A stretch of DNA of 64,000 nucleotides from Octopus vulgaris (Eukaryota), in NCBI GenBank assembly GCA_951406725.2, contig OX597821.1, forward strand, positions 96,100,001-96,164,000, in the 5' to 3' direction. Numbering within the stretch: position 1 is the stretch's first letter; every line of letters starts with the position of its first letter. Below, piece after piece: positions 39,861 to 45,433 of the stretch. Below the pieces are notes generated by a model, which was not told the origin of the DNA, did no database searches, and worked only from the letters and a program-made list of their open reading frames with translations. Position numbers and translations under genes: made by a program.

Positions 39861-40411
39861 GTTACCTGCAGTTAGAGAGTTTCTCATCTGGCAAATGCCT
39901 AGTAATGGCTTCTGTGCAGGATATTATTCACCGAATGCTAAGATACTTTGTGATCGCAGACCTTGTGTCATCGCAGTATATGGAGAAGCAGATACTCCAA
40001 GACATCTCGCCCAACGCTTTAACAATCCTGTCACACAACCGCCCTGTAATAATAATTTTATTGCTTCTGAAAGAATGAATTTTGAAGTTAAGCTTTGTGG
40101 GGATTTTATTCAGAGCACAAAGTGTAAGAATACTGCAATAATGCACGCCATTAAACGTGCTAAAGACTGCCAAATTCACTTCCTTACACTGACACACACA
40201 CACACAGACAGACACACATACAGACACACATACACATCTCTTTGTTTCTATCTTCCCACGCAATCACTTTCCCTGTCTACATTCACCAAACCTACATCTT
40301 ATTCACATTACTCCATCTACCAAAAGAGAAACCTGTCAAAAAGCGAGAAAGAATCAAAGAAAACTTCGGTAGATAAATTGGAAGCTGCTGTCAACCTCTT
40401 CTTTGAGCGCG

Positions 40412-40450
<39 letters not shown>

Positions 40451-40453
<3 letters not shown>

Positions 40454-40667
40454 ATGACCAATCAAAATTTTAGGCGCGAAACCAAGCAAATCCAAAACAA
40501 CTCTGGAGCCTCTTTTTTTCACATATAAGAGACAGACTCTAATCTCTCTTTTATATTTTGATAAGCATAACAAATGCGCAACCGGTAAATAGAACTTTCA
40601 CCTAATTAAATTACTTAAATTACTTCAATTATTTGTCAGCATTTTCTTCATTTCCTTTTTTATATAT
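40451..40667 (+). repeat. 5' pseudo-LTR of the PLE
   Basis: ataatgaccaatcaaaattttaggcgcgaaa...catttccttttttatatat. Matches 44920-45137 apart from poly-T lengths. Confidence 0.95.
40551..40594 (+). ncRNA. Minimal type I hammerhead-like motif (U3-A8, C13 variant) in the 5' pLTR
   Basis: Stem I UU-A-UAUU/AAUA-G-AA, core UUGAUAA, stem II GCAU-aacaa-AUGC, GCAA, palindromic stem III ACCGGU, GUA triplet with predicted cut after 40587. PLE pLTRs are known to carry such minimal hammerheads. Confidence 0.65.
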
Positions 40668-40728
40668 CACCACTCGTGTTCGACATCTCCTTTTTTTAAA
40701 TATCATATCCCCGCACGAGATACAGAAA

Positions 40729-42024
40729 ATGCCTACAAAAACTGAAACCACCCTAATCAACTTAAACGAAGAAATCCTACAGGAACTCAAAAACATCAAC
40801 ACCAACCTCTCTGTACTAGTCAACAAATTGGACTCTACTAATGAGGAAACCATTACCGGACACAAACCCTCCGAAATCGGCGATAAGCTACAAACTCTGT
40901 GTGATACGATCCACACCTTTTTCACCACCACCAACCCAGCCAAAAACAAAGAAGAACCATGTCAAATTGATTCATACAAACTGAAAAATCATATAATCCC
41001 AGAATGGAACAAATCCCTCAGAGACAGAAAGTTCTCCTTCTGGAAAATGATTAGAAACAACAACAAGGCCGAGATATACGAAAAATGGATGAACTCTACT
41101 CCTCTAACTCTTCCCCGCAAAATACAATTAAAAGCCATTCCCAATGAACCTGAACCTCAAAGACGACTTAGGGAAAGAATGGCATTAGAGAGACTGAAAA
41201 CAGAGATTGAACTTCTCAAATTAAGGGCCCAAACAAATGAGGAAAGAGTCAAAACAATCGATGAAGAGATCCTCCTCGTAATAAATAACAAGGCCGAAAG
41301 CCTACACATAGAGAAGATCTCCAAGTTATGGAAAGATGACTGCAACAAAGAGGAACTAAAATCCCTACAACGCTGGGAAAAAAGTGCCGCCTGGTTCCTA
41401 AACTATGAATCGACTTTCAAAACGGATTACTCTTCCAATAACCCGTTCATAAAAATGGGAAAACCAGGAACCCAACCACACAACTACTCCGCCAACCCTC
41501 CAACCTTGAACAAAAGAAGGAAACAGCATATTGAAGATGTACCTTCTTACCCCACGTCCATAAGGAGGAACAAGAACCCTGGAAACTCTCACCACCAGAA
41601 TTACATTAACGAATTTCCCTCTTCAAGGAGACGCTATACACAACAACTCAACAACTACTCGAATACCTTATTAACAAATAAAAGAGGGTCCCACTACCAG
41701 GATAGACACAACAACATCCACACCACGTGGGGACAACAAGGTAATTTTCACTTTCTCAACTCTCACAATACACAACAAACCCATACCACTCGATACAAGC
41801 ACCCACGCAGGCCACTCATATCACCACAATCCATCACAACACAAAGAAACACACACCAACACCCGCAATACAGGAACACCCCATTCTATCCACAACCACG
41901 AACCCGAACCATATTTCACAACAAGGAATATAACAAACACACAGGACCTCCTAACACCAACAGACAACCCCTCTACCCCAACCATTTTTTAGACACAGCA
42001 CACAGATACAGGCAAACAAGATAA
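40729..42024 (+). CDS. PLE ORF1, 431 aa: predicted coiled-coil N-terminal/middle part and Q/N/H/R/P-rich basic low-complexity tail; function unknown
   Basis: Uninterrupted frame from 40633, first ATG at 40729 (MPTKTE). Heptad-like segments LINLNEEILQELKNINTNLSVLVNKL and ERLKTEIELLKLRAQTNEERVKTIDEEI. Lies between the pLTR and the RT ORF. Confidence 0.8.
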   Translation: MPTKTETTLINLNEEILQELKNINTNLSVLVNKLDSTNEETITGHKPSEIGDKLQTLCDTIHTFFTTTNPAKNKEEPCQIDSYKLKNHIIPEWNKSLRDRKFSFWKMIRNNNKAEIYEKWMNSTPLTLPRKIQLKAIPNEPEPQRRLRERMALERLKTEIELLKLRAQTNEERVKTIDEEILLVINNKAESLHIEKISKLWKDDCNKEELKSLQRWEKSAAWFLNYESTFKTDYSSNNPFIKMGKPGTQPHNYSANPPTLNKRRKQHIEDVPSYPTSIRRNKNPGNSHHQNYINEFPSSRRRYTQQLNNYSNTLLTNKRGSHYQDRHNNIHTTWGQQGNFHFLNSHNTQQTHTTRYKHPRRPLISPQSITTQRNTHQHPQYRNTPFYPQPRTRTIFHNKEYNKHTGPPNTNRQPLYPNHFLDTAHRYRQTR

Positions 42025-44305
42025 CACAGGACAGGGAAGAGAAACATAAACTAATTAAAGTCATCAATTTAACCAATACAGAACCCAACCCCAACCTTCT
42101 CAACTTACTCTCCAAAGGTCTGAAATTCACCCCCCCCCACGTCCAAACTACTACGAAATGAAGGATGACATTACAGAATTTTGTAGAAAATTGCGACTTA
42201 GTGAGGAACTATTCGACCAGCACAATGAGGATGAGTCACTAGCTAGAAATAAAAGCAACTACACCCCACGAAAAGGTAGAAATAAAATCCTAGACGAATT
42301 CTGTGAGCACATTACAAACTTCCCCTACCAACACTTACACAAACCAAAACCCAAACCAAACCTCAACAAGAAAGAGTGGGAAGAATTAAACAAATTAAAA
42401 AATGAAAGATCTATCACCATTAAAGAGGCCGATAAAGGAAGTGCAGTAGTCTTAATGGAGACAGAATACTATATCAACTTAGCACTCTCCACCTTGGAAA
42501 ATGGAACATATTACGAAAAGGCTGAACACTACAATCAACAGAAAATTATGAGAAACTTAAAAACCCTGATCAACCCCCACAAAGAAGAACTCACTAACAA
42601 AGAATTCAACTTCATCACAAATTTCACTAGTAAAACCAGCCTCTTCTACGGTATTCCCAAAATTCATAAAAGCGAATTAATAAGTAAGGCATGCAAGGAA
42701 GCCACAAACTCTGTAATCAATGTCCCCTCACCAAATGACCTCAAATTGAGACCTATAATAGCAGGTCCCGCTTGCGAAACCCACCGCCTTAGCAACTTCA
42801 TTGATACCCTTCTCAAGCCGTTCCTCAAACACATTAAAAGCTACATAAGGGACGATCTAGATATGCTCAACCACCTCCCCAATACACTTCTTGCTGAACA
42901 AACCCTGCTAGTAACATTCGATGTAGTCAATCTTTACTCCAACATCCCCCACAACCTAGGAATAGAAGCTATCCAATTCTGGCTGGATAATTACTCCAAC
43001 GAACTCCCACACCGCATCAAAAAGGAATTTATTTTAGAAGGACTCAAATTCATCTTAGAGAATAATTTCTTCACCTTCAACAACAAATTCTACAGACAGA
43101 AATCAGGGACGGCAATGAGAACGAAAACAGCTCCCACTTACGCAAACTTAGTCATGGGATACCTGGAAATCACCCTCTATAATAACGTTCTTAACCAATT
43201 TGGCACCACTCTCCACACACACATAGAGAAGAACTGGAAGAGATATCTTGATGACTGCTTCATCCTTTGGCCCGAAACCGTCGAGAAGCTTAACGAATTT
43301 CACACTCTTATAAATGGGCTCAACACAAACATTATTTTCACAATGGAATACAGCCCTCAACAAATTCCCTTCCTCGACATCCTCATTAAAATTCACAACA
43401 AAAAAATAGAAACAGACATATACTACAAGCCCACAGACTCCAAGCAATACCTCCCTTTCAATTCATGCCACCCTAGACACGTTAAAATTAACATTCCCTA
43501 CAACTTAGCCAAGAGAATTTGCACTATAGTCTCCAATAAAAACACCCGTCTCTTACGTCTACAAGAACTCAAGGGCACATTAACAAGCAGGGATTACCCC
43601 ACGTCACTAATTGACAATGGGATCCAACGCGCCCTAAAACTCAGCACGCAGGAACTTAGACGCCCTAAACCTGTTACATCGAAACCCCATACTCTACCAT
43701 ACATCTCTACACACAACCCCCTCAACAATGAAGCTTTTGACACCATCCTCCAGAACATTCCTGTATTACAAAAGGACCATAGAATGAACCAAATCCTCCT
43801 AACACACGAAATCATAAAGAGCAAAAGGCAACCCAAATCATTGAAAACCATCCTAACAAATGCCAAAGTACTGCCAACCACAACAACTAAACCCACAGTA
43901 AACAAATGCAATAGACCCAACTGTGGTATATGCATCAACCTAATAGAAGGTCCGGAATTCCTTTTTAAACAAGGACAACGTTTCACAGTAAAACACAACT
44001 TCACATGCACATCAGAAAACCTAGTATGTGTCTTAACTTGCTCGGGCTGTAATGAACACTACATAGGCCAAACAAAAAATAGCCTCCGCCAACGCATGAC
44101 TGTCCACAGATCCCAAATAAAAATACAGGAATATAGAAAAATAGCATTTAGTGCACATATTGATACCTGTGCCGCACAACTCCATCCCAATTTTAGAATC
44201 TTTCCCCTCTACAAATTTAAAGACAATGCCACTCATACCCAGCGAATAACCATGGAATCCCACCTTATTAATAAATACAGACCACTTCTAAACACATGCC
44301 CCTAA
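41993..44305 (+). pseudogene. PLE ORF2: reverse transcriptase, Zn-finger-like linker and GIY-YIG endonuclease; this copy has a 1-nt frameshift and two motif substitutions
   Basis: Motifs: VINL and LLSKGLKFTP (upstream of the C9 run at 42130-42138, where the frame shifts), EADKG, FYGIPKIHK, LRPIIAG, TFDVVNLYSNIP, GTAM[R]T, YLDD (43244-43255), FLDI, CNRPNCGIC, and NLV[C]VLTCSGCNEHYIGQT...LRQRMTVH...E..LI...P.LN. The 715-aa track ORF 42158-44305 is the part after the frameshift. Confidence 0.93.
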
Positions 44306-44786
44306 CACGAACCCACAACAAACACACTTACACCTGCACACACCCTACACACACCTTTACCCAGATATTAACACCATGACACACACAAATATATGGTTCC
44401 ACACATACACATAATTGAATACGGGTGCAAAACATCCAACACTATTTTTTGGAAATGGCTGTAAATATTGACTTCACACAAATACGTTGCTTCCCGATAC
44501 AGGCACAAGGCCAGCAGAACTATAAATATTGAAAATTGTACCCACACACACACACATATATACACGCGCGCGCGCCCCAACATACATATAAACACACACA
44601 CACGCGCGCGCGCGCACACACATACATACATACAGCTCTCCCTGTTCTAAACGAACTTACTTATCCAGTCAAGCGGAAAATACACTCCCTAACTACGCGC
44701 TAAAAAGCTATTTAAAATATCCACATGACGTCTACTGACCAGCCTGAACAATAAGAATTTTCAACAACACTATTTTCGAAAATCCT

Positions 44787-45000
44787 AAACATTCACGTGA
44801 CCTCTTTATTATGGCCAATAAGAAATTTTAGGCGGGACACTAGCCAAATTTTAACTTCTCTGGAGCCTTTTTTCTTACCCCAACACCAACTTCCATTCAA
44901 ACATTCACGTGACCCCTTCATAATGACCAATCAAAATTTTAGGCGCGAAACCAAGCAAATCCAAAACAACTCTGGAGCCTCTTTTTTCACATATAAGAGA
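44787..45000 (+). promoter_or_regulatory. Putative PLE promoter: two ~112-bp units, each with E-box, CCAAT and E2F-like site, then a TATA-like box
   Basis: CACGTGAC at 44794 and 44906, CCAAT at 44815 and 44927, TTTAGGCGGGA at 44827, GCGCGAAA (reverse complement TTTCGCGC) at 44943, TATAAG at 44992. The 5' pLTR keeps CCAAT (40458), E2F-like (40474) and TATA-like (40524). Confidence 0.5.
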
Positions 45001-45130
45001 CAGACTCTAATCTCTCTTTTATATTTTGATAAGCATAACAAATGCGCAACCGGTAAATAGAACTTTCACCTAATTAAATTACTTAAATTACTTCAATTAT
45101 TTGTCAGCATTTTCTTCATTTCCTTTTTTT

Positions 45131-45137
<7 letters not shown>
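44920..45137 (+). repeat. 3' pseudo-LTR of the PLE
   Basis: Direct repeat of 40451-40667 at an offset of about 4468-4469 nt. Ends in TATATAT continuous with the flanking (TA)n. Confidence 0.95.
45019..45062 (+). ncRNA. Second copy of the variant hammerhead-like motif, in the 3' pLTR
   Basis: Identical to 40551-40594; predicted cut after 45055. Confidence 0.65.
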
Positions 45138-45189
<52 letters not shown>

Positions 45190-45433
45190 TTTTTAAAATT
45201 TTGTTCAGTCATTTAACTGCGGCCATGCTGCAGCACCGCCTTTAGACGAACAAATCGACCCCAGGATTTATTCTTTGTGAGCCTAATACGTATTCTATCG
45301 TTCTCTTTTGCTGAACCACTAAGGTACGGGGATGTAAACACACCAACATTGGTTATCGAGTGATGGTGGTGGTGGTGGGGATAAACAGAGACACACAAAC
45401 ACACGCATATACATACATGCATACATACATACA

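Follow-up and report, generated by a model that had tools for sequence, protein, structure and literature searches.

Organization of the element

Analysis of the window (the whole 64,000-nt stretch of Octopus vulgaris DNA, contig OX597821.1, positions 96,100,001 to 96,164,000 of the forward strand) revealed two direct pseudo-LTRs (pLTRs) of 217 nt and 99% identity, each bounded by a (TA)n tract, which enclose an upstream open reading frame (ORF1) and a frame for a reverse transcriptase (RT) with an endonuclease (EN) (Table 1). Two overlapping ORFs were found in this element and in 12 related loci, whereas canonical EN+ Penelope-like elements (PLEs) are described as single-ORF (PMC8557442). Its sequence marks the element as a Penelope-like retrotransposon with two ORFs and an endonuclease, which by the features given in PMC8557442 is of the Neptune/Nematis type, although the tree itself holds unnamed loci only. 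Specifically, it shares with the Neptune/Nematis EN+ PLEs the pLTRs, an RT with GLKF, DKG, and YLDD motifs, a CX2-5CxxC linker, a C-terminal GIY-YIG region with CCHH residues, and (TA)n flanks (PMC8557442); the hammerhead-like motif may be a further common feature. The RVT_1 match of the window RT in Pfam (E = 1.6e-4) lies under the curated cut-off, and 666 RT relatives have RT Pfam matches. The three Cys of the linker are invariant across 32 aligned relatives, and a Pfam match to GIY-YIG, absent in the window copy, is present in loci L001, L010, L012, L074, and L080.

Table 1. Features of the element in the window (positions of the window), with the loci of the pseudoknot clade
Feature	Position	Strand	Evidence or remark
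(TA)n microsatellite, 5′ flank	40412..40453	.	sequence; likely insertion target
5′ pseudo-LTR	40451..40667	+	blastn, 99% identical to 44920-45135
Minimal-hammerhead-like motif	40558..40586	+	pattern search; U3-A8 core variant, short stem II, GCAA for GAAA, ACCGGT palindrome
ORF1, 431 aa	40729..42024	+	ATG 40729, stop 42022-42024
−1 frame	41955..42161	+	starts 30 nt 5′ of the heptamer; RT N-terminal motif KVINL...GLKFTP; without ATG; early closure in the window copy
Slippery heptamer T TTT TTA	41985..41991	+	phased with ORF1; putative −1 frameshift site
Spacer, heptamer to stop	41992..42021	+	30 nt/10 codons, unstructured, T-poor; length kept, sequence not
ORF1 stop TAA, then C	42022..42025	+	candidate site of pausing, 11 codons from the A-site UUA
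RT-EN frame	42059..44305	+	+1 to ORF1 in the window copy; motifs DKG 42431, YLDD 43244
Lesion at C run	42127..42138	+	private to the window copy; majority contigs of four runs 4 nt longer
RT-EN linker CX4CxxC, CNRPNCGIC	43907-43933	+	sequence
GIY-YIG region	CxxC 44039, two His from 44105	+	CSGCNEHYIG; CCHH residues
3′ pseudo-LTR	44920..45135	+	blastn; second hammerhead-like motif at 45026
(TA)n microsatellite, 3′ flank	45131..45188	.	sequence
Pseudoknot clade loci	e.g. L047:1746-1806	.	L025, L026, L031, L033, L041, L043, L047-L049, L051, L054, L055, L066, L068, L071; long branch, two-ORF PLEs

The hammerhead-like motif in each pLTR is a candidate ribozyme by pattern, and homologues of it were found in L002, L003, L004, L007, L008, L012, and L081. 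An Rfam hammerhead match was absent; over 40300-45300, only microsatellite-driven matches below the gathering scores were returned. The U3-A8 hammerhead variant has been described (PMC4209133). An imperfect repeat of 88 nt (80%; 44787-44873 versus 44899-44985) lies immediately 5′ of the 3′ pLTR and overlaps its start.

The named RT relatives come from oyster and pearl oyster (bivalves), with others on contigs filed under clam gill symbionts, and L080-L096 are animal-type retroelement contigs within bacterial MAGs. We regard both the RT proteins filed under clam gill symbionts and L080-L096 as host contamination of prokaryote databases. Two scans of viral contigs returned no relatives, and a search of five host-contaminated genomes with the ORF1 profile returned L080 again and nothing else.

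The ORF1 family

The N-terminal part of ORF1 is conserved and all-helical (helices over residues 7-233; predicted structure all-helical, pLDDT 89.6), and it is followed by a low-complexity tail rich in N, Q, R, and H. A profile search collected 1,168 ORF1 clusters at 50% identity, and tblastn detected ORF1 homology in eight loci at 27-36% identity. No Pfam family was found in more than 1 of 118 members, and no Foldseek match was obtained at E 0.001 in PDB or BFVD, nor any match in the Atlas. ORF1 shows no similarity to Gag, nor to the ORF1 of the pseudoknot clade. Because no family or fold matches ORF1, "gag-like" describes it by functional analogy only. A different ORF1 is found in L036 (1827-3755) and L074 (1-975), where the C-terminal part is SGNH-esterase-like and ends at T6A, with the stop at +37 and +40, respectively. 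By their motifs these may be esterases, and searches of Pfam and PDB with them were blank; esterase ORF1 proteins have been reported in Penelope-like elements (PMC3905857).

Conservation of a phased slippery heptamer at the junction

ORF1 reads the heptamer as caT TTT TTA gac (N-H-F-L-D), and the −1 frame, which opens at 41955, overlaps ORF1 by 70 nt. The initial annotation had pointed out a phased T TTT TTA at the ORF1/ORF2 overlap and the extent of that overlap, and both are borne out by the positions of the heptamer (41985-41991), the opening, and the ORF1 stop (42022-42024). It had also likened the heptamer to that of HIV-1 gag-pol, in agreement with PMC5009743, which gives U_UUU_UUA as the HIV shift site. 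The window element contains 32 X XXY YYZ matches in 4.7 kb, of which two are phased within ORF1; the heptamer taken alone is weak evidence, and its significance comes from conservation.

We compared loci fetched by RT similarity (n = 96; of the 64 metagenome parts 19 were scanned, with 80 of 358 matches kept). The RT clade of the window in the tree includes 20 fetched loci, of which eight begin past the junction and one (L058) is too broken, leaving 11 usable. NNT TTT TTR, phased with ORF1 and with the RT frame at −1, was found in 10 of these 11 loci, the other (L046) being a decayed copy close to L003 that has T5. The identical site was present in the distant loci L036 and L074, with RTs 27-29% identical and a non-homologous ORF1, so by sequence the T6A signal is kept across unrelated ORF1 types; it was absent in L014, L085, L018, L022, and L037, which belong to neighbouring branches. 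The initial annotation had proposed weighing conservation of T6 and its phase against that of the AG alone: all 13 junctions retain T6 in phase, and 8 of them retain the AG. Since T TTT TTR is phased in twelve diverged loci, five of them without AG, it appears to be there for frameshifting rather than chiefly as a splice acceptor.

Further features of the junctions bear on slippage. No phased T6 occurs elsewhere within the ORF1 bodies, and the only two other matches in 3,908 open-frame codons both lie upstream of the window's ATG. The codon 5′ of T6 has T as its last base at every junction (background 28%) and otherwise varies (CAT, AAT, GAT, TAT, CGT), and the seventh base is A or G at all 13 junctions, with G (T TTT TTG) at three. 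T TTT TTG is a weaker slippery heptamer than T TTT TTA. Stops in the −1 frame fall in 28 of 260 codons just upstream of the heptamer versus 0 of 390 from the heptamer onward (13 junctions), including none in the 130 codons between the heptamer and the ORF1 stop. An in-frame Met before the RT N-terminal motif was found in none of the 11 junctions checked; in the window, the first RT-frame Met lies at 42158, past that motif.

The same signal was sought in the ORF1 proteins, using the best 150 of the 1,168 clusters, among which 111 have a tail of at least 40 aa. Phe-Leu lies within the last 45 aa in 78 of these 111, versus a mean of 10 and a maximum of 21 in 2,000 shuffles. None of 82 residues before Phe-Leu is E, Q, K, M, or W (background 19%; P = 4e-8), as a T-ending preceding codon requires. 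The residue after Phe-Leu is incompatible with an initial G, which rules out AG, in 29 of 81 proteins, while a G-starting residue follows the heptamer in the other 52 (background 22%), an excess for which AG selection could be a cause. Phe-Leu is lacking in 29 of the 111 tailed proteins, some of which look truncated or frameshifted. The families of two ORF1 proteins, P0122 and P0263, are also among the DNA loci.

Two groups of ORF1 proteins differ at this position. Endings with F-R or F-H were observed in P0160, P0231, P0262, P0266, P0271, and P0272 (9 aa) and in P0133, P0136, and P0246 (10-11 aa); four of these proteins belong to one clade, and the ending plus 9-11 aa stands in place of F-L plus 10. 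UUU CGN is a +1 site known from influenza PA-X and amalgaviruses. By their sequence, the F-R/F-H families could have switched to such a +1 site, with its A-site 10 codons from the stop. In P0001, P0148, P0150, and P0158, the closest ORF1 relatives of the window, Trp rather than the stop occupies codon 11 after Phe-Leu, so that the RT frame there contains an ATG-like codon followed by G at +4, and RT proteins P0002, P0003, P0005-P0007, and P0012 have called starts of M-E or M-A at the codon-11 position. These sister families may thus have acquired a start at an AUG in addition to the frameshift.

The window copy and the run contigs

To read other copies of the family, contigs from 4 of 24 runs were aligned to 40455-44320, and it is only through these run contigs that genomic copies were read. 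In the window copy, the −1 frame ends at a TGA (42159-42161) after a frame break in the C run at 42130-42138, within the conserved GLKFTP motif. In the majority contigs of all four runs, 42127-42131 is longer by a net 4 nt, so that the RT is continuous with the −1 frame. Likewise, RT motif B (43118) is intact in the majority form of the four runs, with a G-to-R change at motif B (43106) found only in the window copy. The window copy is therefore decayed, and the RT of the family is in the −1 frame. The relation described in the initial annotation, with the RT frame exactly −1 to ORF1, thus holds for the family but not for the window copy, in which RT-EN is +1; the site was correctly located, and the broken state of this copy was missed. 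Because of this second, private frame break, the window copy cannot make a fusion protein.

The junction is crossed unbroken by contigs X1 (41296-44320), X2 (41484-42763), and X5 (41831-42220), with nine, five, and three other letters, respectively, and four gaps, all placed away from T6AG. T6AG and the TAA stop are unchanged in these contigs, and no ATG is present at the junction. X1, X2, and X5 are guessed to be RNA, and the contigs show presence only and drop rare forms. A fused consensus frame or an indel artefact in the T run, which the initial annotation had named as grounds for giving up the frameshift, was not found, as X1, X2, and X5 match across T6AG. In addition, a fused ORF1-RT is not the norm, because the 120 best-matching RT-EN relatives have lengths of 557-803 aa in a search whose range admitted 1190-aa fusions, and only 1 of 150 ORF1 proteins reads through.

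Two further origins of the ORF1 stop region were considered and rejected: ATA at the stop as a decayed ATG, as it is unchanged in four runs, and the stop as a private TGG-to-TAA change, which the contigs rule out for the family (sister families have Trp there). Separately, in run X18 the summed contig depth over the pLTR (40455-40712) was more than 100-fold the ORF1 depth, depth being a poor measure, and the excess was much smaller in the guessed RNA runs. The X18 excess suggests very many solo pLTRs or non-autonomous copies.

Conservation, phase, and frame relation make slippage itself likely, and we put the probability of a programmed −1 ribosomal frameshift at T TTT TTA at roughly 85%. Slippage at U UUU UUA would yield, alongside abundant free ORF1 protein, a minor product of about 1190 aa in which ORF1, RT, and endonuclease are fused; the length given for this fusion in the initial annotation agrees with our computed 421 + 772 = 1193 aa.

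Splicing, reinitiation, and transcriptional slippage

If TTTTTTAG were a 3′ splice site, ORF1 would be intronic and a mini-exon in the pLTR (ATG 40574, donor CG/GTAAAT 40585) would start a free RT-EN. The window donor matches at 7/9 positions with an exon phase that fits the RT frame, 5′ introns are known in PLEs (PMC8557442), the AG is present in 8 of 13 loci, and gene calls for the closest RT relatives (P0002-P0007) place a Met 7-24 aa before the INL motif. This reading is nevertheless improbable. T6 persists where the AG does not, since five of 13 loci lack the AG and 29 of 81 proteins are incompatible with it, and the phase of T6 is irrelevant to a spliceosome. Moreover, ATG 40574 and GT 40585 belong to the hammerhead-like stem and palindrome, and an in-phase ATG is absent from seven of the eight homologous motifs, the eighth (L012) being without AG. 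No joint to 41993 appears in the contigs of four runs, which list an X1 deletion form at depth 4.5 and drop rare forms, and the site is crossed unbroken in three runs of two studies (contigs only, with a guessed RNA status); the run contigs are modest evidence on splicing. The suggestion in the initial annotation that the same nucleotides serve splicing, frameshifting, or both therefore finds no general support in its splicing part, given an AG at 8 of 13 loci and no joint.

Two other routes to RT-EN are less probable still. Termination at the ORF1 stop followed by reinitiation, with T6A as a tether at a fixed upstream distance, would account for the constant 37 nt, and in the window and L010 the stop shares bases with a near-cognate ATA, with a possible ATG at the stop position in the sister families. 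However, the stop-overlapping codon is GTA or CTA in L003, L006, L007, L009, and L036, a tether needs no phase, and the −1 frame opens at the heptamer rather than at the stop (0/130 codons between them, 28/260 upstream), all of which make reinitiation very doubtful. The least probable is transcriptional slippage, in which one U added on the T run would fuse the frames in the RNA: a homopolymer run is present, and read-through into the RT frame is seen in P0132 (1 of 150 proteins) and in a few F-F forms, but the run is just six long and indel-free in the contigs of four runs, and the phase and the seventh base (A/G), fixed at 13 of 13 junctions, are not needed for slippage of this kind.

Downstream RNA structure

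In the window, the 45 or 70 nt 3′ of the heptamer have an MFE of 0.0 kcal/mol, and the consensus fold of 12 aligned junctions has 0 pairs. The lack of an obvious downstream hairpin, which the initial annotation had counted against the frameshift, is thus real and clade-wide. A stimulatory hairpin or pseudoknot 5-9 nt downstream was not found in the T6 group. In single families, hairpins were detected in L001 (z −3.9) and L007 (z −1.9), and a crude scan for simple pseudoknots beat its shuffles only in L007. In a control clade among these loci, A AAA AAC is followed after a 6-nt spacer by an H-type pseudoknot, drawn by hand from the alignment, in which 11 of 15 pairs covary among 14 sequences; the ORF1 stop of this clade is 565-649 nt off, and its ORFs overlap by 570-670 nt. 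The clade, in whose L047 no GIY-YIG was seen, probably corresponds to the PLEs for which the literature gives a frameshift with a pseudoknot.

Spacing between the heptamer and the ORF1 stop

Counted from the first T of the heptamer, the distance to the ORF1 stop is 37 nt at 7 of 13 DNA junctions and 40-67 nt at the others. Of 78 proteins, 27 have exactly 10 aa after Phe-Leu, 51 have more, and none has 1-9; the count excludes three proteins with tails of more than 60 and one in which Phe-Leu is the end. By composition, an earlier stop is expected in 24-27% of families, giving P = 0.002-0.004 even at 20 independent lineages. The length of the tail is kept while its sequence is not (9% identity versus a median of 32% in the cores), and the T content of the spacer is 9% versus 17-22% on both sides. 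The distance from the heptamer to GLKF varies from 114 to 258 nt, yet in six of those loci the stop stays at 37 nt. A C follows the stop in five of seven loci with 10-codon spacing versus none of six others (Fisher p = 0.016; 13 loci, two pairs of which are related). The 10-codon peak is concentrated in one half of the ORF1 tree (27/47 versus 3/44; FastTree, with weak deep support), and families are not independent, because the spacing has phylogenetic signal (13 changes versus 23 shuffled). The peak may be partly inherited; at the level of sequence, the floor at 10 codons is general across the T6 group and the peak is not.

Ribosomes offer a possible source for such a distance. Disome peaks occur every 11 codons at stop codons, with C enriched at +4 (10.1101/710491), and in E. 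coli reporters a stop-stalled ribosome stimulates the −1 shift of the trailing one, with a peak at one footprint (PMC6815119), synthetic bacterial constructs being so far the only setting in which such stimulation is known. Queued ribosomes have been placed ~30 nt (PMC7544199) or 9-10 codons (PMC6224477) apart, one to two codons closer than the 11 codons here. At the junction, the slippery codons lie one ribosome length before the stop (11 codons, TAA C). We tentatively propose, at somewhat below even odds, that the −1 frameshift is stimulated by collision with a ribosome terminating at the ORF1 stop, 11 codons behind which the follower would sit on U UUU UUR. A ribosome terminating slowly at this stop would block the next one with its tRNAs on UUU UUA and, as a roadblock, would stand in for a pseudoknot; a terminating ribosome is suggested for this role because the 11-codon distance matches one published queue spacing and the effect in the E. 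coli reporters. The conserved stop spacing, which the initial annotation had not noticed, may thus replace the missing hairpin.

Alternatively, and with a chance not far from even, the frameshift is kept but the spacing is no collision device: shifting would come from basal U6A slippage, family-specific structures, or a bound protein, and the spacing from ancestry, a minimum ORF1 C-terminal tail, or a T-poor spacer. In line with this, 51 of 78 tails exceed 10 aa, one half of the ORF1 tree holds most of the peak, hairpins are present in individual families (L001 and L007), several long-tail families have Gly-rich runs (G-rich RNA), and the spacer is indeed poor in T. This alternative fits less well with the absence of any 1-9 aa tail among 78 despite ~4.5 single-base routes to a stop per spacer and four stops per 130 codons in the unconstrained +1 frame. 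Also against it are the unrelated tail sequences, the constant 37 nt beside a variable distance to GLKF, and the repetition of the spacing behind the non-homologous ORF1 of L036.

Comparison with known systems and implications

The junction shares with HIV-1 gag-pol an identical heptamer in identical phase and a structural-type ORF followed by an RT. The HIV-1 frameshift site has a downstream stem-loop; unlike HIV-1, the junction has none, its ORF1 is without Gag similarity, and the element is non-viral. A two-ORF layout with a frameshift has reportedly been described for the endonuclease-less Athena elements (Terminons). Two-ORF pseudoknot PLEs connect ORF1 and RT through a frameshift, as is probable here, whereas the elements described here have a fixed stop spacing and an endonuclease, with no pseudoknot or shared hairpin. 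Unlike canonical EN+ PLEs as portrayed in PMC8557442, they place a 430-aa ORF1 of a large unnamed family before an RT without AUG. The Fig. 1 legend of the same paper states that ORF1 in PLEs may be split off by a frameshift with a pseudoknot, and an upstream ORF is given there for two Chlamys families; a killifish Neptune has a short, non-overlapping ORF1 (PMC12602865). The frameshifted ORF1-RT layout is thus partly anticipated in print. In the literature outside subscription papers and Repbase, we found no account of the heptamer in EN+ elements, of this ORF1 family, or of a natural stop-spaced frameshift.

The closest parallel for the spacing is provided by the synthetic E. coli reporters (PMC6815119), which likewise have a heptamer one ribosome length before a stop and no RNA structure. 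However, these are engineered and bacterial, with an optimum of 9 codons, whereas the junction here is natural and eukaryotic, at 11 codons, and proposed from conservation only. In SARS-CoV-2, the stop of the 0 frame is 5 codons away and has been proposed to let the pseudoknot refold (PMC8168617); here, no stop is nearer than 10 codons, nor was a pseudoknot seen.

Taken together, the sequences describe a large and overlooked clade of two-ORF Penelope-like elements (1,168 ORF1 clusters at 50% identity) with a gag-pol-like layout and an unnamed helical ORF1, and such a layout implies that annotations misplace the RT start and miss ORF1. In textbook accounts, −1 frameshifting combines a slippery site with an RNA structure or a bound protein. 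Should collision with a terminating ribosome indeed prove to be the stimulus, the junction would provide the first case from nature of a collision-programmed −1 frameshift, and RT output would be tied to the ribosome load on the mRNA. With natural sites that have a fixed stop distance and no shared structure, the question of programmed collision in eukaryotes becomes testable.
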